Source: Hyphomicrobiaceae bacterium (GTDB lineage: Bacteria > Pseudomonadota > Alphaproteobacteria > Rhizobiales > Hyphomicrobiaceae). From it: a DNA stretch of 64,000 bases. The notes beneath the pieces are model-generated. The model did no database searches. It was not told where the DNA came from and worked only from the letters and a program-made list of their open reading frames with translations. The first letter of the stretch is position 1, and every line of letters starts with the position of its first letter. The stretch is taken from assembly GCA_022844225.1 (NCBI GenBank), contig JALHMC010000015.1, positions 11,297 to 75,296 on the forward strand. Reading direction: 5' to 3'. Of the stretch, positions 5,322 to 35,186 are shown in pieces. Made by a program: the position numbers and the translations under genes.

Positions 5322-5324
5322 TAC

Positions 5325-5546: not shown

Positions 5547-5555
5547 CTCACACTC

Positions 5556-6224: not shown

Positions 6225-6259
6225 CTCCTGGTCCGATTAACTTTGGGAAAAATCCATCA

Positions 6260-6589: not shown

Positions 6590-6594
6590 AATCT

Positions 6595-7299: not shown

Positions 7300-7334
7300 C
7301 TCCTGGTCCGATTAACTTTGGGAAAAATCCATCA

Positions 7335-7664
7335 TTATCCTTGGGCGGAATCAAGAGATGGATCGCCCAGTCGGCGCAAACCGCACTCATCGCCCGCTTC
7401 AAGCCAGTGCATTGAAGCAAACGATGAATGTGAACGAATTTTCGAATTCAGGAGATCGATGGCCTGAACCAATGCCCCAAAAGAATCGACCTGCATACCC
7501 TGATGCCGGTAGGTGCTGCCATCTAGGCCCAAACCATCGATCTCGAATACAGCGGCCCAATCGTTTTGAACACGCTCTGGCTTGTAAATTCTTACCTCCA
7601 AGAGCTTCTCGCCATTCACCGTACGCAACACCAACTGGCGCGTGGCAATCAATTGCTGGCTCAT
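7335..7664 (-). CDS. putative immunity protein (copy 1 of a duplicated gene)
   Basis: Predicted protein identical to 6260-6589, with the same SD/ATG context. Confidence 0.6.
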   Translation of the reverse strand: MSQQLIATRQLVLRTVNGEKLLEVRIYKPERVQNDWAAVFEIDGLGLDGSTYRHQGMQVDSFGALVQAIDLLNSKIRSHSSFASMHWLEAGDECGLRRLGDPSLDSAQG

Positions 7665-7669
7665 AATCT

Positions 7670-8707
7670 TTACCTCCCGCAAAAACCAAGCGGCGGAATG
7701 TATCGTTTGTTATTGCAGGCGTGAGTTCGCTCTGAAGCCTGATTGTGGCATTGAGCGCGCTTACGCAATATAATTTGGCTCATGCAGCACGCGCGATCTT
7801 CACGATCCTGTTCGTCACATTCGTCGTCATCCGGGCAGTCCCGACCGCTCCCACTAGGCGGCTTTCCCCCGCCACCGCGACCACCGCCATTCTTTAGAGC
7901 GGTGATTAAAGTGGTCAGGGTCGGAACAACGTAGGGCCTAACTGTAGGCCACACAACGTTCTGAGCGACTAGCTTTATTCCAGGCAACGTCCAGACAAAC
8001 CGCCCGTCTGGATCGACATAGACCTGCGGAGCACCCCTCACATACCCATACACACTCGGCCCATCGACGAAGCCGAGCGGGTCGGGTTGGGTGTAGCGGC
8101 CGAGGCTCGGATCGTAATGCCGGTGCCAGTTATAGTGCAACCCCGCTTCGACTTGGAACCACTGTCCTGGGAACCGCGCATTGAGCGTCGCCGAACCCGT
8201 AATCGACTGCGCCGCGCCCCAGGGCTGCCAGACGGCAGTCCACACAGCGGCCTTGGTGCTGCTGGTCATCTTCACCGGGCGGTTGAGATGATCGACGCTC
8301 AGTCTAGTTGGATGCGGGCCTACGCCCGCGGGCCACGTCGCCGGTGAGGCGGTGTTGACCGCATCCACGACAGCCAGCGGACGGTCCACCGTCGTCCGCG
8401 ACGCAAACGTCGGCGCGATCTCAGTCTCGTACAGCCAGACGTATTCCCGCACCGTGCCGGTGGCGCCCGTCGCCCCCCCACCCGCCGTTTCGGCAATCAC
8501 ATTGCCGAAAATGTCGTGCAAATAGTGCGTGACCCCGGCCGGAGCCAGCGCGGTTGCTAAGTGGGCATCCGAAGCGCCAACAAAGTGACTGTCGCGGATC
8601 GCGATCTGCTCGTTGGCGTCGTACACGTATGTCGCCTGCGGGATCCCGCCCGCGGAGACCGCCTGCAGAGGCGATTGCAGACGATTAGCTAAGACACCCC
8701 AGAGCAT
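7670..8707 (-). CDS. orphan Rhs fragment (last Rhs repeats + core end + CT toxin), 5'-truncated
   Basis: YD-type repeat remnants (THYLHDIFGNVIAETAGGG...REYVWLYETEIAP) and the core end HYNWHRHYDPSLGRYTQPDPLGFVDGPSVYGY. The CT is identical to that of 6595-7299. Confidence 0.8.
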   Translation of the reverse strand: MLWGVLANRLQSPLQAVSAGGIPQATYVYDANEQIAIRDSHFVGASDAHLATALAPAGVTHYLHDIFGNVIAETAGGGATGATGTVREYVWLYETEIAPTFASRTTVDRPLAVVDAVNTASPATWPAGVGPHPTRLSVDHLNRPVKMTSSTKAAVWTAVWQPWGAAQSITGSATLNARFPGQWFQVEAGLHYNWHRHYDPSLGRYTQPDPLGFVDGPSVYGYVRGAPQVYVDPDGRFVWTLPGIKLVAQNVVWPTVRPYVVPTLTTLITALKNGGGRGGGGKPPSGSGRDCPDDDECDEQDREDRACCMSQIILRKRAQCHNQASERTHACNNKRYIPPLGFCGR

Positions 8708-9083
8708 CTAAAATCGGTCGAAACCCGTCTAATTCCGCGACATTAATTGGGGTGAGGCCAGCTTTATTCGAAAGGTCAACTTTTGCACCCGCAGCGATCA
8801 ACAGCTTAACAGCTATAGTTTGCCGAGAGACCACAGCGGCATGCATTGGCGAATTACCGTCCTCATCTTGAGCATTAAGATCGGCACCCTCTTCAGTCAG
8901 AAGTTGAATTGCAGCACCATCCCCAAGAGTTGCCATCCAATGCAGCGGTGTTTCTCCAGTTGCCGATCGAGTGCCAATAGACACCTCAAAATCATCCGGC
9001 AGATGAGCATAATCCCGAAAATCGAAAAGTACTTCGGAAATTTTCAGCATATTGATTACCACATCGAAGCTACTGACGGACAT
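8685..9083 (-). CDS. ankyrin-repeat protein, putative immunity protein for the CT at 9070-10035
   Basis: Ankyrin repeats present (GETPLHWMATLGDGAAIQLLTEEGADLNAQDEDGNSPMHAAVVSRQTIAVKLLIAAGAKVDLSNKAGLTPI). The start MSVSSFDV at 9083 overlaps the toxin stop by 14 nt. The sequence is visibly AT-richer. Confidence 0.7.
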   Translation of the reverse strand: MSVSSFDVVINMLKISEVLFDFRDYAHLPDDFEVSIGTRSATGETPLHWMATLGDGAAIQLLTEEGADLNAQDEDGNSPMHAAVVSRQTIAVKLLIAAGAKVDLSNKAGLTPINVAELDGFRPILDALGCLS

Positions 9084-10035
9084 TGAACGGAGGGTTGCTG
9101 CCATAGCGGCACCACATCTGGCCATGATGTTGATGTTTGCAGCCTGGGGGAATTTTCGACTGCGCTTCCTGCCGAGCTTGGGACATTGCGCCAGGTAACG
9201 TGGCGCTCCATCCGCGCCCCGTGACGAAAGGCGGACAAGCACCCTTCTCGCAGTCGTCCTCGTTGAAGTACATGACGTATCGACAAGAATAGCGTCCGGG
9301 TTCCGGAGGCGGTTTTTTATTCCACTCTTCGACACCCTTCTTCTTGCTATCAGAACTGCTGGACGGAGAACTGCTGGATGGCTGGCTGTTAGTGATGATT
9401 TGTCGAAGAATCTCTTTGGCTACAGCAGTGACGACAACTCGAGTAATTGTAACCGTCACCGGGTTGATAACAAACAGCCCCTCCGGATCGACAAACTGCC
9501 CTGGCGCACCCCTCACATACCCATACACACTCGGCCCATCGACGAAGCCGAGCGGGTCGGGCTGGGTGTAGCGGCCGAGGGTGGGATCGTAATGCCGGTG
9601 CCAGTTATAGTGCAACCCCGCTTCGACCTGGAACCACTGGCCCGGGAATCTGGTGTTCAGCGTCGCCGAACCCGTGATCGACTGCGCGGCACCCCAGGGC
9701 TGCCAGACGGCCGTCCACACGGCGGCTTTGGTGCTGTTCGTCATCTTCACCGGGCGGTTGAGATGGTCCACATGCACCCACCACGTCGCCGGTGAGCCGG
9801 TGTTGACCGCATCAACCACCGCCAGCGGACGGTCCACCGTGGTCCGCGAGCCCATCGTCGGCGCGATCTCCGTCTCATACAGCCAAATATATTCCCGCAC
9901 CGTGCCGGTGGCGCCGGTCGCCCCGCCGCCGGCCGTCTCGGCGATCACATTCCCGAAGATGTCGTGGACATAGTGCGTCACGCCCGCCGGAGCCACGAGG
10001 CTGTCGCGGATGGCGATCAGGCCAGAGACGTCCAC
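9070..10035 (-). CDS. orphan Rhs fragment (repeats + core end + distinct CT toxin), 5'-truncated
   Basis: Rhs homology begins immediately after the stop of the upstream immunity gene. The core end is HYNWHRHYDPTLGRYTQPDPLGFVDGPSVYGY. The CT has a hydrophobic segment, a Ser-rich linker (SSSSPSSSSDSKKK) and a Cys-rich tail. Confidence 0.8.
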   Translation of the reverse strand: MDVSGLIAIRDSLVAPAGVTHYVHDIFGNVIAETAGGGATGATGTVREYIWLYETEIAPTMGSRTTVDRPLAVVDAVNTGSPATWWVHVDHLNRPVKMTNSTKAAVWTAVWQPWGAAQSITGSATLNTRFPGQWFQVEAGLHYNWHRHYDPTLGRYTQPDPLGFVDGPSVYGYVRGAPGQFVDPEGLFVINPVTVTITRVVVTAVAKEILRQIITNSQPSSSSPSSSSDSKKKGVEEWNKKPPPEPGRYSCRYVMYFNEDDCEKGACPPFVTGRGWSATLPGAMSQARQEAQSKIPPGCKHQHHGQMWCRYGSNPPFNVRQ

Positions 10036-10260
10036 TTAGCCGTCATCTTCACTGCTATGCGGATCGAGATCGGGAAACAATTTGACTACTGTTTGCACGA
10101 GCCCCTCGTAGAGCGCAGCTTGCGCTTCGGCAGCCGCTCGGCGAATTCCCTTTCGCACTTCTGGATCGTCTATGTCGTAGCTGATTTCAATGATTTGATT
10201 GAATACCTCACCGTATTTCTCATACTGAGCTATGATTAGTTCAGCAGTCGACTTTTTCAT
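10036..10260 (-). CDS. putative immunity protein for the CT at 10271-10703
   Basis: 74-aa AT-richer ORF starting 10 nt after the CT stop. Paralog of 5325-5546. Confidence 0.6.
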   Translation of the reverse strand: MKKSTAELIIAQYEKYGEVFNQIIEISYDIDDPEVRKGIRRAAAEAQAALYEGLVQTVVKLFPDLDPHSSEDDG

Positions 10261-10270
10261 TCTGTTGCAC

Positions 10271-11663
10271 TCAGTAAGAGCAACGCTGGGCTTTAGCGCA
10301 CTTTTTCACGCAAAGCACCCAACGAGGCTGAAGGTTTCGGCCGCTACCTGGTAGATCGTTCGGACGATCGACAACTATGTCCGTGCAGCCCTGTTTGCAG
10401 CCACGAATTACTGCCTTACAGCGCTTCTCACGCTCCTCATCCTCTTCTTCGTCTGGCTTTTCCTTGAAGCACTGGTAAAGCAGGATAGCCGCTCCGGCCG
10501 CCGCTCCCAACACCACGCCACTTGGACCACCGTAGGCGCCCAGCGTTGCGCCAGCAGTTATGGTATTCCGCCCGCTTGGATCAACCAACTGCTGAGGTCT
10601 ATTTCTAGCATAAGCAAACACACTCGGCCCATCGACGAACTCCAGCGGGTCGGGCTGGGTGTAGCGGCCGAGGGTGGGATCGTAATGCCGGTGCCAGTTA
10701 TAGGATGCTCGTGACCTGCGAGCCCGCGTATGTCAGCTTGTAGTCACGAACAAGCGTCGTGTCCGCCAGAACGCGAACGTTCTTTAGCCGCTGGGTCTCA
10801 AGATAGACTTGGCCATTGAGAAAATAGCGCCGCTCCGCACCGGCTGCGCGCGGCTCATACACGAAGTCGACCGAGTTGAACGGCGTCAGCCCTTGCCCGT
10901 CGTTGCCCGTGTAGTCGACACGGTCGAGCACATGCTCTCCCGTCGTCGTGTTTTCGCTATAGACGTAGAGGACATAGTTTCCGAGCCGGTCCGACAGCTT
11001 GTTCAGAGCCCAAACGCGAACCGCAGTCCCGCCGAGAACTTCGACCCGCGAGTCGGCCGTCATGCCGTACTCCAGGATCTCGCCCGATTTGCGCCAGACC
11101 CGAAACGACTGCGGTCCCCCGCCGACCGAGCCGTACGACACGACCTTTGAGAACTCCTCGATCTTCGTCCGGTACTCTGTGCCATTCGCACCGTAGGTGC
11201 CGCTGACCGCAAGCAGACGCTGGCCGTTGAGGCAGAATTGGTCGTTGGCATCGTAGTCGACCGGATCGATCGTCCCGTCGTTGTAGAGATCGAGCGGACA
11301 GCGCGAAATCGAGCTGATGCCGCCGATCGAACCACCGTACCCGACGACACCGTTGCCACCCGGCCAAACAAACTGCAGCGTCAAGTTCGGCTGGACACCC
11401 GTCGTCCCGGCCGGCACCGTGATCGGGACGGTGTAGTTGGCGCTGCCTGAAGCCCCAACGCCCGCGTTGCCTGCCGTCGCTCCAACGATTTGCGATGGCG
11501 GCAGTATTGGCGCACCGTTCGCATCTGCCGTACCGCCAAAACGAGCATAGGGGTTGGACTGGGCGACAGCTGTCGCACTACTTCCCAATACCGCTGCGAA
11601 AAACAAAAATGGTCCTAGCGCGCTGAATCCAGCGCGTGCAAAAATGCCCGCCATCCTCGACAC
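10271..11663 (-). pseudogene. main rhs gene remnant: signal peptide + SpvB-like N-terminal domain joined out of frame to the Rhs core end + CT; repeat shell deleted
   Basis: The N-terminal ORF (11663->10698) carries a signal peptide (FLFFAAVLGSSATAVAQ) and SpvB-type motifs (ANYTVPITVPAGTTGVQPNLTLQF ... ISRCP ... DQFCLNGQRLL). A TAA lies at 10698-10700. From 10703 downward a different frame reads YNWHRHYDPTLGRYTQPDPLEFVDGPSVFAYARNRPQQ... to 10271. Confidence 0.7.
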
Positions 11664-14583: not shown

Positions 14584-15738
14584 ATGCTCAACGATCTTCT
14601 GATCCGCAAATTGCCCGTACCGGCGGCGGGCGTCGCACAGCATCCCGACGGCAAACTGCCGGGGTTCGGCGTGCGCGTCACGGCCAACGGCGTCCGGTCC
14701 TTTTATCTGGCCTATCGCCATCAGGGGAAGAACCGGCGTCTCAACCTCGGGCGATACCCGACCACGTCTCTCCAGAAGGCACGAGGCAAAGCCTACGCCG
14801 CGCTCTCTGAACTTGAAGACGGCCGGGACCCGAGCGGTCACATCTCGAAAACGGAGACGTTCGCCGGGGCGGTCGATGCCTTTGTCTCGAACCATTGCCA
14901 GCGACATAATCGATCCAGCACGGCCGCTGAGACCGAACGCCTGCTCAAGGTCTACTTCCTTCCCGGTTGGAAAAACCGGAAGGTTGAGGCCATCACCAAG
15001 TCGGATGTGACGGAGGCGCTTGAGCCCGTCATCAAACGCGGCGCGCAGGGAGCAGCCCGGCACGCCTTTGCTGCCATCCGCAAGATGTTCAACTGGATGG
15101 TCGAGCAGGGCATGCTGGAAATCAGTCCGTGTACCGGCATGAAGGCGCCGGGAAAGCCCGGCAGCCGTGACCGCGTGCTCTGCGACGGCGAACTCGCACT
15201 GGTCTGGACAGCCGCTCTCGATATCGGCCTTCCTTTCGGGCCGATCGTTCAACTGTTGATGCTGACGGCACAACGGCGGGGCGAAGTCGTTGCCATGGCA
15301 TGGGACGAGATCGACGAAGCTCGCGCAATCTGGACCATACCGGGCGAGCGCACGAAGAACGGCAAATCCCATGCGGTGCCGTTGTCGGCGGCTGCGCTCA
15401 AGATACTCTCGCGCGTTCCAAGATCGAATTCGCCTTATGTTTTCCCGGCACGCGGCAAACCAGACCAGCCTTACGCCGGTTACTCGAAGGGCAAGCGCGA
15501 GCTCGACGCCGTCGCCGGCCTGCACGACTGGACGCTGCACGATCTCCGGCGTAGTGCAGCGACCGGCATGGCCAGCCTTGGGGTTGCGCCGCATGTTGTT
15601 GAGCGCGTACTCAACCACGTCTCGGGAACGTTCGCGGGCGTGGCAGGCGTCTACAACCGGTTCAAGTACGAAGATGAGATGCGCGAGGCGCTTAATCTCT
15701 GGGAACGCCATGTCATCAAATGCACAGCGCGCCCTTAG
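14584..15738 (+). CDS. int: tyrosine recombinase / integrase (P4-like, DUF4102-type N-terminal arm-binding domain)
   Basis: N-terminus GFGVRVTANGVRSFYLAYRHQGKNRRLNLGRYP. Catalytic region has LLMLTAQRRGEV (Arg), HDLRRSAAT (HxxR) and GVYNRFKY (Tyr). Confidence 0.95.
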   Translation: MLNDLLIRKLPVPAAGVAQHPDGKLPGFGVRVTANGVRSFYLAYRHQGKNRRLNLGRYPTTSLQKARGKAYAALSELEDGRDPSGHISKTETFAGAVDAFVSNHCQRHNRSSTAAETERLLKVYFLPGWKNRKVEAITKSDVTEALEPVIKRGAQGAARHAFAAIRKMFNWMVEQGMLEISPCTGMKAPGKPGSRDRVLCDGELALVWTAALDIGLPFGPIVQLLMLTAQRRGEVVAMAWDEIDEARAIWTIPGERTKNGKSHAVPLSAAALKILSRVPRSNSPYVFPARGKPDQPYAGYSKGKRELDAVAGLHDWTLHDLRRSAATGMASLGVAPHVVERVLNHVSGTFAGVAGVYNRFKYEDEMREALNLWERHVIKCTARP

Positions 15739-16201: not shown

Positions 16202-17617
16202 TCACATCTCGTTGCCAAAATCCCAGCCGGGATTCTGCCGCCGCCATTCCTCCATCTGCGTCTTGATCGCCGCAACCCGAGACATCTGGACGGGCGAACG
16301 GGTGTTGACAGCTTCGTTGAATTTCTCGGATGCCGGCACATCGGGCTGAGGCGGAGCTGGCAACGCGCGAGACTGCTTGCGCTCCGCGAGCAGTGTTTCC
16401 CTGGCAAGATCGAATGTCACAACAAACCGCAACTGGGATTCGTGCTCGCTTCTTGCCAGCTTCCGTTCTTCTGCCTGTCTGTCGCGAAGCGTGTCGAACC
16501 GATGCTTGTGCTGCTGCCAGATGCGTTCAGAGATCACCTTCTTCTCAGACTTCTCCGACCGCGCGAGGTTGCGCCGCTCCTTGTCGTGGACCGCTTCAAC
16601 CCGTTTCATGAGCCTGTCGGGCCTCAGGATGAGGCCCGCCATTTGTCTTAAGGTAAGGCGCTTGCCATCGCCCAACCGCTCGCGGTTCCTGAAGACGAAC
16701 ACGGCCCGCTCGAACGGATGCGTGGCGTCCTGCGCAAGCGATCTCTTCTCCTTATTGTGGGCGCGATAGAGGTCGCGCCACAGCGGACGGTAGCGGTCGG
16801 ATACGGTTGTTCTCGCATGGTCCACGGTGGCATGCGTTGAAACGTCGAGGTTGTCGCGCTCCTGAACCTGTCGTTTCCAAAGCTCATCAAGATTTGCAGT
16901 CGCCTTGCCTGGAAGGAGCGGCGCGATTTCCTTCCTCAGCTGTTTCATTCGGTCGATGATGTCTTTGCGGTCGAGCCAGTCCTCGCGCTGTGCGGATTTG
17001 TGCTTCACCGGGACGTAAGGCGGGGCATTTTGAATCTCGTCGAGACTAGCGCGCAGCAGCTCAGCGGACCGTTTTGCGATCTGAATGTTGTCGCGTGCCT
17101 CGTTGTTCTTGATCCGCTGATCGATATGGATGCCGTGTTGTTTTTCGTAGGCCTCCGCCCAACGGGACAGATGTTCCTTTGTGTACTTCAGCGGGGCGGT
17201 CATCCCGGTATTGGGATGGACGGTGTTGACGATGATGTGCACATGCAAATGATCCTTGTCGCTGTGCGCTGCCATCAGCGCCTGATGCTCATCGAGCTTG
17301 AGAGCCTTCAGGCTCGACAGGGCCGTCTCCCGCATGTGCTCAGGGCTTGGATTGTCGCTCGCGGCCCAAGACAGCGTGTAGTGGAGGACCGGCTTTGTGT
17401 TCTTGCGCCCGCGCGCGTCCTGCCCGGACTGTTGCTTGAGCAACGCCTGGTCGCGGGCGACGGTGAACATCTCCGACCATGCGTTTTCGGGTCGGGAGAG
17501 GAGATTGGCCGTCTCTGCCCAAAGCACCCGGTCAGTCGTGTCCTTGCCCGCGTCGTGCAGGATGTACCTGCACGCTCCTTTGAAAGACGTGCCGCGCTTG
17601 TGCAGGCGAGGGATCAT
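16202..17617 (-). CDS. relaxase/mobilization nuclease (MobA/VirD2 superfamily)
   Basis: N-terminal tyrosine region (GTSFKGACRYILHD) and the histidine triad HSDKDHLHVHIIVN. The start MIPRLHKRG at 17617 was chosen over the longer ORF. Confidence 0.9.
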   Translation of the reverse strand: MIPRLHKRGTSFKGACRYILHDAGKDTTDRVLWAETANLLSRPENAWSEMFTVARDQALLKQQSGQDARGRKNTKPVLHYTLSWAASDNPSPEHMRETALSSLKALKLDEHQALMAAHSDKDHLHVHIIVNTVHPNTGMTAPLKYTKEHLSRWAEAYEKQHGIHIDQRIKNNEARDNIQIAKRSAELLRASLDEIQNAPPYVPVKHKSAQREDWLDRKDIIDRMKQLRKEIAPLLPGKATANLDELWKRQVQERDNLDVSTHATVDHARTTVSDRYRPLWRDLYRAHNKEKRSLAQDATHPFERAVFVFRNRERLGDGKRLTLRQMAGLILRPDRLMKRVEAVHDKERRNLARSEKSEKKVISERIWQQHKHRFDTLRDRQAEERKLARSEHESQLRFVVTFDLARETLLAERKQSRALPAPPQPDVPASEKFNEAVNTRSPVQMSRVAAIKTQMEEWRRQNPGWDFGNEM

Positions 17618-18029
17618 TGGACGGGTTCCTCGGGCTGAGGGCTTCGGCGATCTGTTGCACGAACATCTTCTGTGGATCGGGCAACTGTGGCGGTGTGGCA
17701 GACACCTGCTCGCCGAGTACACGCAGCAGGTCGCGCGCCTGGCGATAGGCGAACTGCACATCCGGCGGGAGATTGCTGTTCAGGGCATGGGCAACCTGAT
17801 TGACGTTATTGCCGATGCGGCGCAGCTCCTGCAACAGGGCCGGGTCCATCGGCTCTGGTCCGCGCGTGGCTTCGACCTTGCCATCGCAGACCAGCCGTTC
17901 ACAAAAACCGGATACGCTCAGACCGGCGCGGCGGGCATCGATGGTACAGCGCAAATGCTCATCGGGCGTGAGCCGTATCGTGACGGTCTTGCTGCGCGGA
18001 GCAGTCGCGTGTGTCCGATGCCTCGGCAT
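17532..18029 (-). CDS. mobC: MobC-family relaxosome accessory protein
   Basis: RHH-like N-terminus (KTVTIRLTPDEHLRCTIDARRAGLSVSGF) and the MobC motif LRRIGNNVNQVAHALN. It lies immediately upstream of the relaxase gene and overlaps it. Confidence 0.85.
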   Translation of the reverse strand: MPRHRTHATAPRSKTVTIRLTPDEHLRCTIDARRAGLSVSGFCERLVCDGKVEATRGPEPMDPALLQELRRIGNNVNQVAHALNSNLPPDVQFAYRQARDLLRVLGEQVSATPPQLPDPQKMFVQQIAEALSPRNPSNDPSPAQARHVFQRSVQVHPARRGQGHD

Positions 18030-18124
18030 CCTTCAGGCCTCATCAAGGTTGGGTTCGGGGCGCGGGAACCGCGCCCTGACCGGAGGGGTCCGGGGGAGTG
18101 GCGGAGCACTCTCCCCGGCGAGTG

Positions 18125-18172
18125 GGATTTGCAAACGATTGCCGCGTAAGCGATGCAAACGATTGCAAATCC
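18125..18172. promoter_or_regulatory. imperfect inverted repeat, oriT candidate
   Basis: ggatttgcaaacgattgc-N12-gcaaacgattgcaaatcc has outer 10-nt arms that are perfectly complementary. It also contains a direct repeat of gcaaacgattgc. It lies in the divergent region between mobC and the T4CP gene. Confidence 0.35.
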
Positions 18173-18597
18173 ACATCTCGCTACCCCACGCTTTAGGGTG
18201 CTGCGTATTCGCAAACGTTTCACCCGTGGTTTGTAATTTATTCCCAAGTTTTTCGTTTTAGCCATTTGTTTATTTTTCATACGATCATTGCGAAACATGG
18301 CAATACCCCGCAGGTCATAACGGCTCATGCCAAAACTTTTCCAATAACGACGATTATGATAATGCGCGCCTGCGTGCGTATGCGCGACGGCGCGAGCAGG
18401 TCTAAATCCAACGCCGACAACGCGGCGTAGCCTGGCGTCGGCAAGAATAATTTGAGCGAGACTTCGCGATACATCGCGTGGCGCTACTGCACATCGTTGA
18501 ACATGGCGAACGTTTACAGCCTGACTTGCGATTGATACTTTTATCGAATTGCCGGGCCGTGCTGCGTTCGCCCGTTTCATCTCAAGGAGACAAGCGA

Positions 18598-19971
18598 ATG
18601 CTCGACGGAGAGTTTCCGCCGCGCGGCTCCGGCGTTCCCGGCCGACTGGAATCCCCGCCCTCTGCTGTATGGGCTCATCCATGGACGCTCGGCGCGGGCT
18701 GGGATTGGAAGCCGGGCATGGTGCTGCTTGGATCGCATGAGAAGCGTATCATCGGGTTCGATGACGACCGGCACGTGGTGACCGTTGCGGGCAGCCGCGC
18801 TGGCAAGTCGTCGACCGTGCTGATCCCTAACCTGTTGCGCTATCCGGGCTCGATCGTCGTCCCCGATCCCAAAGGCGAGCTTGCGCTTGCGACAGCAGCG
18901 CAACGAGCCCGAATGGGCCAGCGGGTGATGATCCTCGACCCGTTCAATGTGACGGGGCTGCAAACGGCCTCGCACAATCCAATCGCGGAGCTCGGGCAGG
19001 GGCGGCCCGAGCATGTGGCAGCGGACGCAGCGCAGCTAGCGGACGCGCTCATCGTTTCGAATGCCAAGGACCCGCACTGGACGGACAGCGCCAAGAACCT
19101 GCTGCGGGGAATCGTCCTGCATCTGCTCTCGACGCAGGCGAACGTCACGTTGCGCGAGGTCCGGAGGTACCTCTGCGCAACGCCGCCGGAGCTCAGCGAA
19201 CTGTTTTCGGCAATGACAGAGTCCAATGCCTATGACGGCGTGGTGGCCAATATAGGCGCATCGCTGCTGGGCAAGCTCGAAGCGGGCGGGAGAGAATTGC
19301 AAAGCATTCTCTCGACCGCGCAGGAGCAGACGGCGCCGCTCGATGACATTGTCGGTATGACGGAGACGAGTGATTTCCGGCTGACTGATCTTCGGTCGGG
19401 CAAGCTCACTTTGTACCTGGTGCTGCCGGGTATGCGCATGGGGACGCATTACCGCTGGCTGAGGCTGGTGATCCAGCTGGCGTTGGCCGCGATGGAGCGC
19501 GCACCTGTGCCGCGCGGGCAGCTGCCGGTGTGGTTCGTACTCGAAGAGTTTCCGGCGCTCGGCCACATGCGATCGATCGAGACCGCCGCCGGCCTCATGG
19601 CCGGGTTTGGCGTCAAGCTGTGGAGTGTTCTTCAGGACCTCACACAGCTTCAGACGCACTACCCGAAATCCTGGGAAACGTTCATGGGTAACGCCGGGGT
19701 CGTGCAGGCCTTCGGCAACGCGGACATCACGACGACCGAGCATCTTTCGAAGATGCTTGGGTCGACGCAGGTGATGGAGCGACAGGACATCCGCGTGTCG
19801 GCAAGCGCGATGAGCCAGGGCGACAGTGGACGGCGTGAGCACGTCCGCAATGTCCGCCTGCTCGATGCCAACGAGATCACGCGACACTTCTCGCGCGAGT
19901 CAGGAAGACAGCTGATCCTCGTGCCGGGCCGTCCGCCGATCTATATGCAGCGCCTACAGATCCCGAACTGA
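18598..19971 (+). CDS. VirD4/TraG-like type IV coupling protein ATPase domain, no N-terminal TM segments
   Basis: Walker A is VVTVAGSRAGKSSTVLIPNLL and Walker B-like is VWFVLEEFPALG. AAGGAG SD lies before the ATG at 18598. The N-terminal 70 aa are hydrophilic. Confidence 0.85.
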   Translation: MLDGEFPPRGSGVPGRLESPPSAVWAHPWTLGAGWDWKPGMVLLGSHEKRIIGFDDDRHVVTVAGSRAGKSSTVLIPNLLRYPGSIVVPDPKGELALATAAQRARMGQRVMILDPFNVTGLQTASHNPIAELGQGRPEHVAADAAQLADALIVSNAKDPHWTDSAKNLLRGIVLHLLSTQANVTLREVRRYLCATPPELSELFSAMTESNAYDGVVANIGASLLGKLEAGGRELQSILSTAQEQTAPLDDIVGMTETSDFRLTDLRSGKLTLYLVLPGMRMGTHYRWLRLVIQLALAAMERAPVPRGQLPVWFVLEEFPALGHMRSIETAAGLMAGFGVKLWSVLQDLTQLQTHYPKSWETFMGNAGVVQAFGNADITTTEHLSKMLGSTQVMERQDIRVSASAMSQGDSGRREHVRNVRLLDANEITRHFSRESGRQLILVPGRPPIYMQRLQIPN

Positions 19972-20655: not shown

Positions 20656-20844
20656 CTATCCTACAACCTCCCCGCCAAACGTCTCGATGCAGCCATAGCG
20701 ATTGCGGAAGTCGAATAAGGCTTTCTCGGCGTCGTCTTCATAGAAGCCTCGGTTGAGGCTTTCGCGGTAGCGGATCGACGTTTCGAAGAGATCGATGACC
20801 TTCATTGCTTCGGTAAGTTTGGCTCGCAGTTCTCGGGACGTCAT
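20656..20844 (-). CDS. small hypothetical protein (paralog of 20841-21005)
   Basis: The C-terminal motif FDFRNRYGCIETFGGEVVG resembles FFRNRNGCIETGSWEVAS of the upstream gene. The start overlaps that gene's stop (ATGA). Confidence 0.5.
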   Translation of the reverse strand: MTSRELRAKLTEAMKVIDLFETSIRYRESLNRGFYEDDAEKALFDFRNRYGCIETFGGEVVG

Positions 20845-21005
20845 GACGCGACCTCCCAGCTTCCTGTTTCGATGCAGCCATTGCGGTTGCGGAAGAAGGT
20901 TTCCCCGTCGAGATCGTAAAGGTCATCGGCCCGGAAGATCTGGCGCTCGATGCGTGCCTCGTAATCGTCGTCGGCGGTGGCGCGGGAGGAAGGGGAGGGG
21001 GTCAT
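20841..21005 (-). CDS. small hypothetical protein (54 aa)
   Basis: Only the last 54 codons of the 259-aa ORF look coding. The ATG overlaps the stop of 21002-21226 (ATGA). Confidence 0.5.
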   Translation of the reverse strand: MTPSPSSRATADDDYEARIERQIFRADDLYDLDGETFFRNRNGCIETGSWEVAS

Positions 21006-21226
21006 TGCTGACCCCCAGTGCCGGTGACTTCGGCGTCCTTCTCGGTGTTGAGGCGGATGGCGACGCGGCCCTGACCTGCGGGATAGGCATCGAACACGAG
21101 GCTGAAGCCCTGCTTGTCCTTGTGCTGCCAGGCGGCGCCGATCTTGGTCCAGTACTCTTTTTCGTCGTCGCCCTGGATGACATAGATGCTGTGGGTCGGA
21201 CGCTTGGTCGGTGGGTTGTCGGTCAT
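21002..21226 (-). CDS. small conserved hypothetical protein (paralog of 26871-27137)
   Basis: PTHSIYVIQGDDEKEYWTKIGAAWQHKDKQGFSLVFDAYPAGQGRVAIRL aligns with PSHIAYTTRQSGEKTFWNACGAAWAHKDGKGFRIKLDAVPVNGVIELR. Confidence 0.6.
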   Translation of the reverse strand: MTDNPPTKRPTHSIYVIQGDDEKEYWTKIGAAWQHKDKQGFSLVFDAYPAGQGRVAIRLNTEKDAEVTGTGGQQ

Positions 21227-21316
21227 GATGTACTCCGTTCTTGGTTTCGAGGCGCGGGCACAACGCCCGTCCTGATGGGACCGAACAAACCGCGTCCGCG
21301 GAGCGGGTCAGACGGG

Positions 21317-21374
21317 CAACACGGGAGCGCCCGGGTCTCCCCCGGGGCGCGAATGGAGCGGGCAGCCCGTTGAC
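21317..21374 (-). promoter_or_regulatory. conserved 58-nt leader/promoter motif, copy A
   Basis: Plus strand: caacacgggag-[gcgcccggg tctcc cccggggcgc hairpin]-cgaatggagcgggcag-N4-ttgac. It lies 90 nt upstream of the ATG at 21226. Flanks are identical in copy B (51478-51535). Confidence 0.5.
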
Positions 21375-21754
21375 CCATAGCGACCGGATGCGGTTAGGCC
21401 CCATCCTTGAAGGACGGGCGGAGCACCGCGCCGGGATCAATCGCGAAGAACGGTTTTCATGAGTGCGGCAAAGACCGAATGTTCTGCGCTGACGGCGCGC
21501 CATCGACTGCGAAGTCACACTGTGCTGGACCGAGGAGACACGCGGCGCAGGGGCAACATGCGCCTTCGAAAGTGGAGCCGGATTCCTCAAGGATTTGGAG
21601 CGCCGGTTTCCGCCGAACAATCGGAACGCCAGTAAATTCGGGCTGGTTCAGCATGGCGAATTTGTGATCCGGCCTTCCGACCGCGACGTCATTGCTTTTC
21701 GACTGCGCTGCGCACGATTAGCTTCCGCACGATGCATGCAGCGGAGAAACGCGG

Positions 21755-22486
21755 ATGTCATCTCAACTCTCACGACGACATTTTATCGGCAGCGGTATCG
21801 GTCTTGCGGGAATGTCGCTGACGCTCGATCCGAGAATCACCTGGCTGCGCCCGGCCACTGCAGGAACAGACGCCAGTTCATTCGTGGCTAACCACATGGC
21901 GCGGCTCGAAAGGTTTCATGCGCGCTTCCTGGAAGCCGATAATGCCGACCTCGCCAGCATCGAGCAGTTCCAGGATTGGCAGAGGCAATACGATAGGCTT
22001 GTCGGCGCAGCCGACACCGTTCGTAAAGCAATAACAGACGACACCCCGGACCGCGACGCGCTCGTCCAGAAGGCGAGGACGTATGTCGAGCCTTCCTGTG
22101 GGCGAGCGATCCTGTACTGGCGGCCGATAGAGGACATGAGCCAACCGTTCGAAGGTCGCATTTACACATTCTTCGCGGCGCGAACGGACTGGATTTGCAG
22201 TATCGCGCAACGCGCTTGCGACCCCGACATCGATTTGCGGGTCTCTGCCGTGGTTGACGCAAGCAGTGCCGTGCGCAGCGCCATGCCGGCGACGCGCGGC
22301 GACCGCTCCGCCATGCGGCGCGTGATCGAAGCGTTTCGCAACGACGACATGGTCGACGTTTCCATTGTTCGTGGCTCGCTTGAGGAACACCAGGTTCGCA
22401 GCTTCCGCGACTGGGCGCGCCCGTGCGGAAGCTTCAACTGCAAACACTGCGAGGCCTGGCTTAATAATGTGGAGGACTTGACATGA
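21755..22486 (+). CDS. hypothetical protein with twin-arginine signal-like N-terminus
   Basis: MSSQLSRRHFIGSGIGLAGMSLTL. First gene of a five-gene overlapping operon. Confidence 0.6.
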   Translation: MSSQLSRRHFIGSGIGLAGMSLTLDPRITWLRPATAGTDASSFVANHMARLERFHARFLEADNADLASIEQFQDWQRQYDRLVGAADTVRKAITDDTPDRDALVQKARTYVEPSCGRAILYWRPIEDMSQPFEGRIYTFFAARTDWICSIAQRACDPDIDLRVSAVVDASSAVRSAMPATRGDRSAMRRVIEAFRNDDMVDVSIVRGSLEEHQVRSFRDWARPCGSFNCKHCEAWLNNVEDLT

Positions 22487-22986
22487 CAGCATCGAGCGTA
22501 ACCGGCCATAGCGGCGTCCCAACGATCAGTCGCAGGCAACTCTTCAAGGGCAGCACCGCCTCGGTGGTCGCGTGCACCGCCGCGACAGCGGTTTCGCTCA
22601 GGTTTGCGGCAGCACCGGCAGCGGCGCAGCCTTTGCCGCTGTCCTACAAAGGCATGTTCAACGACATCATCGATGTCTGCGCGCGGTACCATTGGACGAC
22701 GCGTGCCGCAGTCCTTTCGGAAAGCCGTGAGCGTCACGTCGTAAAGGCGCGACAGGCCGCCATGTATATTTCCCGGCGACTGACGCGTCGATCCCTTCCG
22801 GAAATCGGCCGACGCATGGGCGACCGCCTTCACACGAAGGTTCTGTATAGCGACAGCAAGATAACGGCGCTGGTCGAGCGCGATCCCATCACGCGGCAAT
22901 CGATGGAACGGCTGACAGATGCCTGCCTTGCCATCGCGCGGTGGCGGATTGCAGAGGGCGCTGAGACCGGGGAATACGTGGGATGA
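22483..22986 (+). CDS. twin-arginine signal-like N-terminus fused to a DnaA domain IV (Bac_DnaA_C)-like HTH
   Basis: N-terminus SRRQLFKGSTASVVACTAATAVSLRFAAAPAAAQP. It is followed by VVKARQAAMYISRRLTRRSLPEIGRRMGDRLHTKVLYSDSKI, compared with the DnaA pattern RQIAMYL.RELT..SLP.IG..FG.RDHTTV. Confidence 0.7.
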   Translation: MTASSVTGHSGVPTISRRQLFKGSTASVVACTAATAVSLRFAAAPAAAQPLPLSYKGMFNDIIDVCARYHWTTRAAVLSESRERHVVKARQAAMYISRRLTRRSLPEIGRRMGDRLHTKVLYSDSKITALVERDPITRQSMERLTDACLAIARWRIAEGAETGEYVG

Positions 22987-26780: not shown

Positions 26781-26870
26781 GGCGGATTGCTGACCCCGAA
26801 CTGGCCGCTTGAAATTTCCCGTGGGCTGATTAATGCTGTATACTGATAGAACGCCGACCTAGGGGGAATA

Positions 26871-27137
26871 TTGCCGACTGCCACTGCCGAAACTCAATCT
26901 CAGGACACCAACAAGAAGCCCAGCCACATCGCCTACACGACGCGCCAAAGCGGCGAGAAGACATTCTGGAACGCGTGCGGAGCCGCATGGGCCCATAAAG
27001 ACGGCAAGGGCTTCCGCATCAAGCTCGACGCCGTGCCGGTCAACGGCGTGATCGAGCTCCGGACCAACGATCCGAAGACACCGAACGACAACACCCCGAT
27101 CGACTGGTCCAATTTCTCAGACGTCTCCGGTCAATGA
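26871..27137 (+). CDS. small conserved hypothetical protein (paralog of 21002-21226)
   Basis: TTG start preceded by AGGGGGA. Its stop overlaps the ATG of the next gene (ATGA). Confidence 0.6.
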   Translation: MPTATAETQSQDTNKKPSHIAYTTRQSGEKTFWNACGAAWAHKDGKGFRIKLDAVPVNGVIELRTNDPKTPNDNTPIDWSNFSDVSGQ

Positions 27138-29226: not shown

Positions 29227-30132
29227 TCAGCCTGGTGGCTGTAGAGCCCTGAGGTAGGCTGCTGCCTCGGATGCCTTTGCAGCGGCGGTGAAGATCGCCC
29301 GGCTATCCGACTTGAGAAGCTTGAGCCACTGCGCCAGGTACTGCGCATGATCGGCCCGGACGTCCTGCGTGATGCCCAGTTCCGCGCAAAGGATCGCTGA
29401 ACCGATCTCGGCCACAAGCTCTTCAGCCGCGTAGGCGTTGTCACCGAAACGCTTGCCGAAATCGCGGTTGAGGCGGTGCTTGGCACCCGACCAGTGCGTC
29501 AGCTCATGAATGAGAACGGCGTAGTACCCCTCGGTCCGCGTCATCGTTTCGGTGCCGCAGAACAGCTCCTCGCTCGGCATGTGGATGCTATCGGTTGAGG
29601 GGCGAAAGAAAGCGCGTTCGCCACCATGTGCGATGACAGCGCCCGTTCCGCTGACGAAACCGTCAACACGAGCGATGCGTTCGACGGGACCAAGAGAGGG
29701 TGCTGCATCCGGTGCGGTATATCCTTCGACCTGGTCGGCGTTGAAGACCCACGATGCGCGCGCAACGCGGCGCTTCCCGTCATCGTCGGCGGACTCAGGA
29801 TCGGGAGCAATCTCGTACTGCTTGTAGAAGACGACGAGCGATGAGCGTTCGCCCTTGCGGACCTGGCAATCCATCTCAAGCCATTGCTTGTAAGTGGCCC
29901 AGACCGGTTGGCTGTACCCAAGGCATTCGGCAGAGACCCACAGATTGACGACGTTGATGCCGTTGTAGGCTTTGCCCGTCAGCGCGTTGACCGGCATGAA
30001 CATCGGACCCTGCGATCGGCGCCACGGAAGTGTGGGCTTTCCCGGATCGGATTCGATTGCGGCGACGAGCTTGTCGGTGACTTCGGCATGGATGTCGCGG
30101 CGCGGTGTTTCGGTTGATGCATGAGTTCGCAT
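29227..30132 (-). CDS. ardC: ArdC-like antirestriction protein (ssDNA-binding N-domain + zincin metallopeptidase)
   Basis: The N-domain has LPWRR...PVNALTGKAYNGINVVNLW ... WATYKQW. The HExxH motif is LIHELTHWSG. Start MRTHAST at 30132. Confidence 0.9.
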   Translation of the reverse strand: MRTHASTETPRRDIHAEVTDKLVAAIESDPGKPTLPWRRSQGPMFMPVNALTGKAYNGINVVNLWVSAECLGYSQPVWATYKQWLEMDCQVRKGERSSLVVFYKQYEIAPDPESADDDGKRRVARASWVFNADQVEGYTAPDAAPSLGPVERIARVDGFVSGTGAVIAHGGERAFFRPSTDSIHMPSEELFCGTETMTRTEGYYAVLIHELTHWSGAKHRLNRDFGKRFGDNAYAAEELVAEIGSAILCAELGITQDVRADHAQYLAQWLKLLKSDSRAIFTAAAKASEAAAYLRALQPPG

Positions 30133-30216
30133 GAGATCGGCCCTTCGCTTTTCCCGGACCGCCCTGAGTGGCGGTCTCGATGCCGGGCGAAGGCGACGGC
30201 GGATGAGCGGATGCGG

Positions 30217-30277
30217 AACCGAGCCGGGAGGCGAGGCGGCCCGGCCTGCCGGAAAGCCGAGGGCGTGAGCCCTTGAA
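30217..30277 (-). promoter_or_regulatory. diverged third copy of the leader motif, upstream of ardC
   Basis: gaaccgagccgggag-[GC-rich segment]-cggaaagccgagggcgtgagcccttgaag. It lies 85 nt upstream of the ATG at 30132. Similarity to copies A and B is partial. Confidence 0.3.
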
Positions 30278-30803
30278 GCATGCGCGCGCCGGCGCAGCAT
30301 CGGCATCATGAAAAGACCGTCACTGGCGGGAGTGCGGAAAGTGAACGCAGCTCGATCGATGGAAGAGATGAAGCTGTGTGCCGCTAGGGCCAGCCGAGAC
30401 GCGGATCGAAAGTGGTAGAGGGAAATGCGGACGCGTTGCGCGTGACGGAGCTGAACACAGTGGCTCGGACATCCAGAACCGGCGGCAGCTGCCGTTTGGC
30501 GGCCCCGTCAAAATCTTGCATCACGTCTACGGAATTCTTGCCGCCGCCAGCCCTTACGCATCTTCAGTACGGCATGCAGGCTGGCAGCCTGCGTAAGCCG
30601 TTGCCGCTCTCCGAGCTCTTGTACAAAGTCCTCCAGGATCGCCCGCCACTCTAACTCGCCCATACGTCCAGGGTATGAATCATATAGCGGACGATGGGAT
30701 ATCACTCTCGCAGCAAGGTCAGTACTCATGTGCTTGCAGGATTGGCCACCGCAATGCAGCGACTCCGGGCTTTAGAAAGCATCGGGGAAAACGGGGAATA
30801 CTC

Positions 30804-32201
30804 ATGTCGCAGACTGAACAGTTCGATGTTGTCATCCTCGGGAGCGGCCAAGGCGGAAAGCTACTCGCTTGGCACCTCGGTCACTCCGGCAAAAAAGTTG
30901 CTGTTGTAGAACGCCGGTGGATCGGTGGTTCATGCCCAGAAGTCGCTTGCTTGCCCTCCAAGAACGAACTCTGGAGTGCCCACGTCGCTCATTTGGTGCA
31001 GAACGCAGCCCAATTCGGAACGCTTGTCGACGCAGTCAAGATCGACATACGGAAAGTGCGAAGTCGCAAACAGGGCATGATCGATCGAGTGGTCGCTTTT
31101 CACCATGGTGCATATAAGGAGAGCGGCGCTGAACTCATCATGGGCAGCGGTCGTTTCGTTGGCCCGAAGACGATTGAAGTAGCCTTGAACAACGGTGGTG
31201 GCACTCGGTTGCTCGCCGGCACCGAGGTCGTCGTTAACGTCGGAACGCGAGCAACGACCCCCGATGTACCCGGTTTGGAAGCCGCTCGCGCTCTGACGCA
31301 CATTGAGGCGCTGGAGCTCGACTATGTTCCCTCCCATCTGATCGTCCTGGGCGGCGGTTATGTGGGAATTGAAATGGCGCAGGCTTACCGCCGTTTTGGT
31401 AGCCGCGTAACGATCATCGAACCTGGCCGCCAACTCATGGGGCGCGAGGATGCGGATGTCGCTGAGGAGATTCGCAATGTCCTCGAACTCGAAGGCATTG
31501 ACGTCATTCTTGCCGCTCAACCTGTGAAGGTCGTCGGGCTTTCCGGTGACGCAGTCACATTGATCGTCCGCACGGCCACGGGGGAACAGCAAATCGAAGG
31601 GAGCGATGTGCTCGTCGCGGTTGGTCGAACCCCAAACACGGATGGGATTGGCTTGGAAAAGGCGGGGATCGAGCTGGATACGCGCGGTTTCGTCCGCGTC
31701 AACGAACGTCTTGAAACAACAGCCTCAGGTGCTTGGGCGATAGGGGAATGCGCCGGCAGCCCGCAGTTCACTCATGTCTCGGTAGATGATTTCAGGATCG
31801 TCAAGACCAACATGGCTGGAGGCAGCCGCAGAACAGACAACCGTCTCGTTCCCTACGTTATGTTCACCGATCCACCGCTCGCCCGCGTCGGTCTTTCGGA
31901 GGGCGAGGCACAGCGCAAGGGAATATCGGTGCGCGTCGCCAAGCTGCCGATGAGTAACGTGCTACGAACGGAAGCCACCGATGAAAGCACGGGCTTCATG
32001 AAGGTGGTGGTAAGCGCGGATGATGATCGCATCCTTGGATTTACGATGATTGGTTCTGAAGCCGGCGAGGTGATGGCTGCGATCCAGACGGCGATCCTTG
32101 CTGAATTGCCCTACACGAAGCTCCGTGATGCAGTCTTCTCGCACCTCACCGTCGCCGAAGGCTTCGGACCCCTGTTCGAAAATGTCCCGCCGCGGGTATA
32201 A
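30804..32201 (+). CDS. class I pyridine nucleotide-disulfide oxidoreductase (mercuric reductase / dihydrolipoamide dehydrogenase-like)
   Basis: FAD-binding motif FDVVILGSGQGG. Redox-active pair GGSCPEVACLPSK. NAD-binding motif LIVLGGGYVGIEMAQ. A C-terminal dimerisation region is present. Confidence 0.85.
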   Translation: MSQTEQFDVVILGSGQGGKLLAWHLGHSGKKVAVVERRWIGGSCPEVACLPSKNELWSAHVAHLVQNAAQFGTLVDAVKIDIRKVRSRKQGMIDRVVAFHHGAYKESGAELIMGSGRFVGPKTIEVALNNGGGTRLLAGTEVVVNVGTRATTPDVPGLEAARALTHIEALELDYVPSHLIVLGGGYVGIEMAQAYRRFGSRVTIIEPGRQLMGREDADVAEEIRNVLELEGIDVILAAQPVKVVGLSGDAVTLIVRTATGEQQIEGSDVLVAVGRTPNTDGIGLEKAGIELDTRGFVRVNERLETTASGAWAIGECAGSPQFTHVSVDDFRIVKTNMAGGSRRTDNRLVPYVMFTDPPLARVGLSEGEAQRKGISVRVAKLPMSNVLRTEATDESTGFMKVVVSADDDRILGFTMIGSEAGEVMAAIQTAILAELPYTKLRDAVFSHLTVAEGFGPLFENVPPRV

Positions 32202-35051: not shown

Positions 35052-35070
35052 TATATGCGCCACGCATACA
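35052..35070. promoter_or_regulatory. palindromic operator S1 (TATATGCG-CCA-CGCATACA)
   Basis: Lies in the divergent DUF417/MarR intergenic region. It matches the same 8-3-8 palindrome family as 37133-37151 and 37173-37191. Confidence 0.5.
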
Positions 35071-35186
35071 CTTATGAGCGAGACATGTCGAGTGGCTTTT
35101 GGCTCGCGCATTGCTTGCTCACGACGCCTCGGGCGAGGAAAGGGTTTAACTTGCTGTCTATGCTCGGCGCACATAAAGATGTGGCC

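Follow-up and report, generated by a model that had tools for sequence, protein, structure and literature searches.

The mobile element and its two motif copies

The stretch of DNA analysed here, referred to as the window, comprises 64,000 nucleotides (nt) from Hyphomicrobiaceae bacterium (assembly GCA_022844225.1, contig JALHMC010000015.1, positions 11,297 to 75,296 of the forward strand), and all coordinates below are positions within it. It carries two copies of a conserved, structured DNA element, each upstream of a gene on the minus strand. On the plus strand, the segments 21317-21374 (copy 1) and 51478-51535 (copy 2) have identical flanks, CAACACGGGAG ... CGAATGGAGCGGGCAG-N4-TTGAC, and enclose a central stem which differs in sequence between the copies while its pairing is kept, being GCGCCCGGG/CCCGGGGCGC with a 1-nt bulge in copy 1 and GGCCCC/GGGGCC in copy 2. 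The distance from the apex to the start codon is 90 nt in copy 1 (ATG at 21226) and 79 nt in copy 2 (ATG at 51398). An earlier note on this DNA had described the two 58-nt segments with identical flanks, the GC hairpins that differ and yet pair, and the start-codon distances, and all of these were confirmed. It had the extent of the element only in part: the 58 nt are real, but they are the apex of an element about four times longer. Likewise, the GC hairpin that it treated as the main feature is present but is a variable, dispensable insertion, and the outer covarying helix, GTCAA-nnnn / nnnn-T-TGAC, was absent from that account.

The gene downstream of copy 1 (21002-21226, minus strand) encodes a 74-aa protein that matched no Pfam or NCBIfam family and whose homologues are also associated with the motif at other loci (e.g. 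L046 and L025). Downstream of copy 2 is a gene for a 614-aa ParB_N / HTH_ParB protein (49554-51398, minus strand). Both copies sit in divergent intergenic regions. A covariance model, R1, was built from other genomes only and then run on the window, where it recovered the apex module of copy 1, consisting of the core and helices P1a and P1b (21303-21378; the plus strand folds and the gene is on the minus strand), with 57.3 bits (E 3e-16) and that of copy 2 (51466-51539, plus strand) with 66.5 bits (E 2.7e-19). The next-best match in the window reached only 13.7 bits; this candidate third copy (31565-31623) lies antisense inside an oxidoreductase gene and was rejected as a chance match. The variable apical hairpin, P2, which is the GC hairpin noted earlier, occupies 21327-21350 in copy 1 and 51488-51511 in copy 2, on the plus strand in both.

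Anatomy and conservation of the element

Read on the sense strand, the apex has the form GTCA-A-nnnn-C, TGCCCGCTCCATTCG, P2, CTCCCGTGTT, G-n'n'n'n'-T-(P3)-TGAC. Across copies, the nnnn/n'n'n'n' helix is built from no fewer than 14 Watson-Crick combinations. In the model alignment, pairing was present in 91.3% of the cells compared with 72.6% in shuffles, and 313 cells were changed on both sides compared with 114 in shuffles; none of 500 shuffles reached the observed value, and the slid controls of the covariation test collapsed. The compensatory stem changes first seen between the two window copies are therefore upheld by covariation against shuffles. A covariance model and a search for further covarying copies elsewhere had been proposed as a check; the model works and relatives were found with it.

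P2 is optional and ranges from a 7-nt GC-TNC-GC unit up to about 30 nt, with many relatives carrying it as a mere 7-nt mini-hairpin, and P3 is a second optional hairpin that can be inserted in the 3' arm. Among the diverged copies found by the model, the most constrained parts are GCCCGC-N-CC and CCCGTGTTG. Diverged copies such as the one at locus L058 (125-171) have a core reduced to CTGCCCGCACC-GGAC-CGGGTTG, which hints at what a minimal functional apex may look like. The purine-rich internal loop is nearly invariant across phyla, which suggests recognition by a protein. This loop lies upstream of the -35-like box described below, where an UP element or an activator would sit.

The 58-nt motif is the tip of an imperfect inverted repeat of 200-250 nt that reaches the start codon, and the leader (apex to start codon) is complementary to the sequence flanking the apex on its upstream side. 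Across 34 families of leaders, the mean duplex energy was -38.9 kcal/mol for cognate pairs and -21.9 kcal/mol for non-cognate pairs (p 1e-17), and the cognate energy fell under the 5th percentile of the non-cognates in 74% of the families. The long hairpin of copy 1 (21222-21462, plus strand) starts at the start codon and Shine-Dalgarno sequence (SD) of the 74-aa gene and extends some 240 nt upstream. Folded as single-stranded DNA (ssDNA), 21220-21470 forms one hairpin of -72.9 kcal/mol (z -4.84), and 0 of 200 shuffles were as good. Copy 2 also forms a single long hairpin on the plus strand (51399-51618).

Distribution and gene context

The two-block core CTGCCCGCTCC-N8-38-CTCCCGTGTTG, searched as an exact match on the sense strand, was found at at least 118 loci in the genome collection, compared with about 2 loci expected by chance according to our own estimate. 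Among the matches listed, the hosts are mostly Sphingomonadales, Hyphomicrobiales, Rhodobacterales and Caulobacterales, and others belong to the Acidobacteriota, Verrucomicrobiota and Beta- or Gammaproteobacteria, with one Flavobacterium. A BLAST search of plasmids gave three further copies, in Sediminicoccus, Variovorax and Ancylobacter, each in the same sense upstream of a small gene. In viral contigs the core was found by exact match in only 3 of 2.9 million (L122-L124, IMG/VR).

In 74 distinct cases, the distance from the core to the first downstream open reading frame (ORF) was 63-122 nt, most often 85-87 nt, and the motif was always in the sense orientation. The downstream product was ArdC in 13 of 36 diverse examples; others were an N6_N4 DNA methylase, DUF6876, DUF2958, DUF3768, ArdA, ParB_N and small unannotated proteins akin to the 74-aa protein. 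In conjugative elements, genes of this set are the ones classically associated with establishment and anti-restriction. The proposal that the two segments are a shared, strand-specific cis element upstream of backbone genes thus holds across genomes. Since megablast of the 4-kb surroundings of both copies against plasmids gave no match, the genes were annotated directly.

The folding strand and the mRNA leader alternative

It is the template (antisense) strand that folds, i.e. the plus strand in the window, and not the mRNA sense. Among 32 distinct copies, 27 have a minimal P2 that reads GCGNAGC on the template strand (GAA in 14, GCA in 11), and GCGNNAGC is found in 7 of 11 cases. DNA mini-hairpins of the GCGNAGC type are hyperstable, melting near 80 C compared with 39 C for r(GCGAAAGC), bind the ssDNA-binding protein (SSB) poorly, and are present at the G4 origin, RSF1010 ssiA and the N4 hairpin promoters (PMC13037366). 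The sense-strand counterpart of the minimal P2 is a 2-bp hairpin with a UUC triloop, and the apical loops on this strand are of the UNC or UNNC form.

In addition, we counted wobbles as single-transition departures from Watson-Crick pairing, scored in a strand-neutral way. Beside the TCA/TGA helix, next to the -35-like box, A.C outnumbered G.T on the sense strand by 31:2, and in the long stem by 30:10 (12 families vs 3, p 0.002). As an A.C on the sense strand is a G.T wobble on the template strand, the template strand appears to be under selection for pairing. For example, ATCAA/TTGAC recurs and GTCAA/TTGAT never occurs, while TGGC/ACCA recurs as the intermediate between TGGT/ACCA and TGGC/GCCA. 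Two other measures were set aside. Raw folding energy favoured the template strand in 93 of 99 cases, yet mostly through base composition; with a dinucleotide-shuffle control, a slight advantage of the template strand was left. Wobble counts on the model-fitted alignment A5 were judged unreliable because the model rewards G.U and misaligns copies with P3, and strand-neutral aligners were used instead.

These results bear directly on the possibility, raised in the earlier note, that the motif is a structured 5' leader. In this reading the mRNA would carry a riboswitch-like or protein-binding cis RNA that controls access to the SD. Such a leader would account for the fixed short distance to the start codon, the covarying helices and the UNAC-type tetraloops on the sense strand; many leaders also contain a pyrimidine tract complementary to the SD (e.g. 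CUCCUUUU / AAAAGGAG in copy 2), and the inner core helix predicted by RNAfold includes a G.U pair. On the other hand, it is A.C and not G.U that is tolerated on the sense strand (31:2 and 30:10), and the minimal P2 would be an RNA hairpin of 2 bp and a UUC triloop with no stability, while the complementary sequence forms a hyperstable hairpin as DNA. In a long stem of this kind the SD and the AUG would be hidden constitutively, and no conserved promoter is found upstream of the whole repeat. Searches against Rfam gave no match at the motif: none in the whole window at the gathering score, none in 21150-21800 around copy 1 when E values up to 10 were allowed, and none in 8 diverse related loci with E up to 1, in keeping with the earlier view that no named RNA family could be assigned. 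With the template strand and not the mRNA sense selected for pairing, we regard an mRNA leader as unlikely.

Promoter-like boxes on the folding strand

Read on the template strand, the inner stem has TTGAC(G/C) on its 3' arm, and the TTGAC is paired in the stem in most families. About 16 nt 3' of TTGAC, beyond the 58 nt, there is an A-rich peak with the consensus G-C-(C/T)-A. GYYA was found at this -10 position in 19 of 36 families and at the corresponding place on the sense strand in 0 of 36, with a mean of 2.9 and a maximum of 7 in shuffles. The Caulobacter RpoD consensus is TTGaCgS / GCtANAWC (PMC8144410), and the layout of TTGAC(G/C) and GYYA fits it. Pairing along the 3' arm follows the same layout: it is present in 60-92% of families through the -35 and spacer, drops to 33-47% exactly at -11 to -8, and then recovers.

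In copy 1 the -35-like TTGACC (21370-21375, plus strand) is fully paired with GGTCA-A at 21306-21312, and a weak -10-like TTAGGCC (21394-21400, plus strand) follows after a spacer of 18-19 nt, with A21396 unpaired. In copy 2 the -35-like TTGACG is at 51531-51536 on the plus strand, with 51532-51535 pairing with 51470-51473, and the -10-like CAAGGT (51553-51558, plus strand) follows after a 16-nt spacer, with A51554-G51557 unpaired in the fold. The CGCG that comes next (51559-51562) pairs with CGCG at 51436-51439.

From the -35/-10 geometry, transcription of the ParB-like gene is predicted to start within 51430-51440 on the minus strand, where a sense CGCGT box is located. For the 74-aa gene, the -35 geometry points to 21270-21280 on the minus strand, a region that has no such box. 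Both predictions denote regions set by geometry and not exact nucleotides. Of 71 copies, 37 have a sense CGCGT box that begins 31-32 nt beyond the C of TGAC; counted by family the figure is only 7 of 27, and the box was rejected as a universal start site for this reason. In copy 2 it forms a clamp directly downstream of the bubble.

In duplex DNA, the -35 and -10 boxes point away from the gene, and at the -10 position the true sense strand has a GC/pyrimidine tract in place of a -10. The same boxes could therefore be seen as a conventional duplex regulatory region, in which TTGAC-N16-(-10) is an antisense, divergent promoter, the core is its operator, and the palindromy comes from protein binding or cruciform formation. 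The reading of the boxes away from the gene in duplex DNA, the divergent intergenic position of both window copies, and a core almost as invariant as binding sites are all in line with this. Nevertheless, a divergent gene within 400 nt upstream is found in only 18 of 55 families, the upstream gene being co-directional in 24, which argues that the boxes are not simply a divergent promoter. The arms covary freely, whereas protein-binding palindromes keep their sequence; the length variation of P2 and P3 would shift the spacing of operator half-sites by 5-30 bp; and the mismatches at -11 to -8 would be meaningless in a duplex. We consider this explanation very unlikely. Two further promoter types were discarded. 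A duplex promoter on the sense strand with a fixed -35 and -10 does not fit conserved blocks that stand 5-30 nt apart with no sense -10. Sigma-54 and extracytoplasmic function (GGAAC-N16-CGTT) promoters were dismissed on visual inspection, as their spacing is not matched and the bases in question are at positions that covary.

Relative to the gene, the strand that folds is the antisense one, and some apical loops on it are GNRA-like, as would be expected of a cis-antisense RNA over the leader that folds and pairs with the mRNA in the manner of FinP or CopA. Such an RNA would have to be driven through the whole hairpin by a downstream promoter, and none is conserved; the sole promoter-like element on the folding strand is 3' of the apex, and GNA triloops on 2-bp stems are unstable in RNA. 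An antisense RNA is thus extremely improbable. The related suggestion that the motif might be the target of a regulatory small RNA (sRNA) was not borne out either, since the window holds no separate complementary sRNA locus: a 16-mer search with up to 3 mismatches on both strands of the window returned only the two copies and two chance-level matches.

Orientation and the probable transferred strand

The window contains an integrase gene (14584-15738) and a gene for a MOBP-type relaxase (16202-17761, minus strand; Pfam PF03432, NCBIfam TraI_MobP_relax), which is co-oriented with both motif-bearing genes. The gene for the type IV coupling protein (TraG/VirD4; 18478-19971, plus strand) is divergent from the relaxase gene and opposite to the motif genes. 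Between these two genes, two adjacent inverted repeats, GGGGAGTG..CACTCTCCCC and GGATTTGCAAACGATTGC..GCAAACGATTGCAAATCC, form a candidate origin of transfer (oriT; 18085-18175). A search for the RP4-type nic consensus YATCCTGY gave matches at chance level, and none in the intergenic region between the relaxase and coupling-protein genes.

The relaxase gene is normally the last to enter the recipient, and the transferred strand (T-strand) serves as template for anti-defence genes (PMC11541004), so genes co-oriented with the relaxase gene would use the transferred strand as template. Based on the relaxase orientation, the plus strand of the window, which is also the strand that folds, is the probable transferred strand. 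Across genomes, 6 of 7 loci have motif genes that run in the same direction as the relaxase gene (the window, L003, L086 with two copies, L097, L101 and L117), and in all of 17 loci the coupling-protein gene runs opposite to the motif. In each of the 9 loci that have more than one copy (two or three), all copies lie on one strand. Clusters of 2-3 co-oriented copies within 8 kb are found at L051 (three copies, plus strand), L007, L049, L058, L072, L082, L086 and L099. In the window, the copy 1 gene is about 3.5 kb from the putative oriT.

A folded transferred strand could also serve as a single-strand initiation (ssi) signal only, at which a primase or primosome reads the hairpin and primes the complementary strand with no promoter being involved. 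This would be consistent with the folding of the template strand, and GCGNAGC and GCGNNAGC are typical of the G4 origin and RSF1010 ssiA (PMC13037366). Frpo transcripts, moreover, also act as primers (10.64898/2026.01.09.698686). Priming, for its part, needs neither a fixed distance to a start codon, nor a copy for each establishment gene, nor -35 and -10 boxes of which the -10 is open, and no cognate primase was recognised beside the copies among the window ORFs that were scanned. As the sole function of the element, priming is in our opinion quite unlikely; the two roles are compatible and not mutually exclusive.

A proposed hairpin promoter in transferred single-stranded DNA

Taken together, we consider it rather likely that the element is a transferred-strand, Frpo-like ssDNA hairpin promoter for anti-restriction and establishment genes. 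A single-strand promoter was among the options listed in the earlier note, and it is favoured over the others by the folding of the template strand and by -35-like and -10-like boxes that point at the gene only once this strand is folded. The analysis above shows the anatomy of the element, how it is conserved, the strand that folds and the orientation of the copies; the mechanism set out here, including transcription from ssDNA, its start site and the role of the apex, is deduced from sequence. The long hairpin would form in the recipient cell when the transferred strand of the element, which is mobilisable or conjugative, is single-stranded. Intrastrand pairing would restore the -35 box (TTGAC/GTCAA) and the spacer of the 3' arm as duplex. 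The same arm would present, about 16 nt beyond, a -10-like element (GYYA / CANNNT) whose bases at -11 to -8 face mismatches and so would already be unpaired. The 5' arm would run on as template into the leader and the gene; because the arm that is paired to this pseudo-non-template strand is contiguous with leader and gene, a bound polymerase would transcribe the gene. Host RNA polymerase with the housekeeping sigma factor may thus transcribe ArdC-type anti-restriction, methylase, ParB-like and further establishment genes before the complementary strand is synthesised. Once the DNA is double-stranded the promoter would be off, since a -10 is lacking there on the true sense strand. The purine-rich loop, CAACACGGGAG / CGAATGGAGCGGGCAG, and the GCGNAGC cap probably nucleate and stabilise the fold against SSB, or dock a protein, or both.

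A broader proposal is that these copies represent an undescribed class of ssDNA promoter that spans phyla, in which the nearly invariant apex is a dedicated docking or folding module for the start of transcription by host RNA polymerase on the entering strand of plasmids and of integrative and conjugative elements, both in Alphaproteobacteria and in other groups. We put this forward tentatively, as a possibility. On this proposal, zygotic induction of anti-restriction genes would be general and predictable from sequence outside Enterobacteria. If the apex is a docking module, its recogniser might be a universal host protein, such as the alpha or sigma subunit of RNA polymerase or SSB, or a protein that is transferred together with the DNA.

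Several observations weigh against a hairpin promoter in transferred DNA. The excess of A.C on the sense strand could be caused in part by strand-biased mutation, and in a dinucleotide-shuffle control the advantage of the template strand was modest (z -0.99 vs -0.70 for the sense strand, p 0.003). The ssDNA fold of copy 2 (51392-51620; -43.7 kcal/mol, z -1.45) is no better than shuffles. Only about half of the families have a recognisable -10-like element, and that of copy 1 is a poor match. The extreme conservation of the apex exceeds what promoter geometry alone explains. In many leaders a local helix pairs the pyrimidine tract with the SD, which has the look of RNA-level control; wobble counts are uninformative for this helix, and a second, RNA-level layer of control is therefore possible. 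The transferred strand is taken from the orientation of the relaxase gene and not from a mapped nick, and it keeps this provisional standing because no nick site was recognised; at locus L074 the relaxase has the opposite orientation. Finally, about 33 kb separate copy 2 from the putative oriT, and this copy would not enter early, so that 'early' expression has to be understood in a relative sense.

Comparison with known single-strand signals

The class 1 ssDNA promoters are Frpo1/2 of F and ssi1-3 of IncI1 plasmids (Masai & Arai 1997; PMC11541004; PMC12672017). Two further classes were defined in 2025, class 2 at ardA/klcA and class 3 at M.EcoGIX, on pESBL and F (PMC12672017). The known classes are large stem-loops that rebuild a -35 and -10, with starts confirmed in transconjugants, and are silent as duplex (PMC12672017, PMC11541004, 10.64898/2026.01.09.698686). 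For classes 2 and 3, the start sites were confirmed in transconjugants by rapid amplification of cDNA 5' ends (5' RACE) (PMC12672017). In IncF and IncI plasmids, ssDNA promoters precede ardA, klcA, methylase, ssb and psiB genes (PMC12672017). In the literature consulted, experimental proof is confined to IncF/IncI plasmids of Enterobacteria, other candidates having been proposed by similarity (PMC11541004, PMC12672017).

Like Frpo and ssi1-3, the new element is an imperfect hairpin of large size, on what is probably the transferred strand, in the intergenic region before anti-restriction, SOS-inhibition or establishment genes. It would likewise rebuild a -35 and a -10 for host RNA polymerase; the -10 is weak or missing in about half of the families and in copy 1. 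Each early operon has a single copy, and all copies share one strand. As in those systems, activity would be expected only before complementary-strand synthesis. Unlike them, it has no sequence similarity to F Frpo1/2 or ColIb ssi1-3, and when 72,556 plasmids were searched by blastn (word size 11), the two copies gave 8 short matches, in alpha- and betaproteobacterial replicons, none of them IncF or IncI. Its hosts are GC-rich Alphaproteobacteria together with some Acidobacteriota, Verrucomicrobiota and Beta/Gammaproteobacteria. In addition, a near-invariant purine-rich loop with a mini-hairpin cap takes the place of the A+T-rich UP region, and the -10 is of the GCtANAWC type and not TATAAT. 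A further parallel is with classes 2 and 3, unrelated hairpin families that do the same job before anti-restriction and methylase genes and that were found by hairpin mining and not by homology (PMC12672017). Those two classes have different hosts and RACE-confirmed starts; the new element is known from sequence.

There is also a likeness to RSF1010 ssiA/ssiB, the G4 origin and the N4 virion RNA polymerase promoters, which are ssDNA signals built around an SSB-resistant GNA/GNNA mini-hairpin (PMC13037366) and are recognised as a structure by the initiating enzyme. Those signals are about 20-40 nt long, are read by dedicated primases or a phage RNA polymerase, and stand at replication origins or phage early genes with no -35 or -10. 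They are not set upstream of each establishment gene, whereas the new copies are upstream of genes and not at an origin.

The radC and STAXI motifs, too, are conserved and structured, and in mobile elements they precede integrase, methylase, anti-restriction or ParB/KorB-type genes; STAXI has been suspected of acting as ssDNA. The new element differs from them in that no Rfam model matches the window copies or eight diverse relatives, also when the thresholds are permissive. Full-text literature searches found no description of such promoters in Alphaproteobacteria or in integrative and conjugative elements (ICEs). Because logic, position and gene set are shared with the known promoters, yet sequence similarity is lacking, the phyla are others and the apex is distinctive, the element is probably a new class of ssDNA promoter and not a member of the Frpo group.

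Other features of the window

A third, weaker copy had been suspected upstream of ardC (29227-30132, minus strand). The region does have a long hairpin of its own (30139-30345, plus strand; fold -69.3 kcal/mol, z -2.1), which includes a P2-like GGGCTCACGCCC and a GGGC-GTGA-GCCC cap followed by TTGAAG, but the apex is degenerate, the conserved core is missing, and R1 does not detect it. This hairpin could be either a decayed copy or a sister class, and it indicates that the apex can decay while the hairpin persists.

A paralogue of the 74-aa gene (26871-27137, plus strand) lies on the opposite strand and has no hairpin motif. Upstream of it is a conventional-looking TTGAAA ... TATACT (26811-26850), so the 74-aa family appears to be under two types of control within one element. 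Just downstream of the 74-aa gene, a 45-nt direct repeat (20666-20710 and 20851-20895; 80% identical) lies within two small tandem ORFs, which points to the duplication of a small gene within the same putative early operon. Divergent from copy 1, the gene at 22483-22986 (plus strand) encodes a 167-aa protein that is essentially a DnaA C-terminal DNA-binding domain (TIGR00362 positions 349-435, E 4e-20).

We also found a defence-like cluster (54221-62472), which houses a protein with an Mrr-type restriction endonuclease domain (54221-55003), an N6 DNA methylase (55994-57691) and a 1312-aa TPR protein with the PIN domain of the TPR-GreAB-C-PIN system (58534-62472). A 25-nt palindromic box of the type TATATGCG-N-CGCATATA occurs three times (35052-35076, 37133-37157 and 37173-37197), flanking an OsmC/hydrolase gene (35807-37099) and a LysR regulator gene (37247-38137); these boxes are probably the LysR operator set of a cargo operon. 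Outside the mobile element, 5268-10703 contains 4-5 tandem units of about 1075-1475 bp that are 74-100% identical and overlap ORFs with weak RHS and SpvB-like matches (7670-8707 and 10698-11663). This array looks like a polymorphic-toxin cassette array.

Conclusion

If the element acts as proposed, the ssDNA-promoter mechanism would extend to ICEs and plasmids of Alphaproteobacteria and several other phyla. A compact signature of sequence and structure would directly mark both the zygotically induced genes and the transferred strand. The small downstream genes, including the 74-aa family, DUF6876, DUF2958 and DUF3768, would be flagged as candidate anti-defence or establishment factors. The invariant apex raises the concrete question of what recognises it. 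The element would also offer a self-silencing promoter design for GC-rich hosts.

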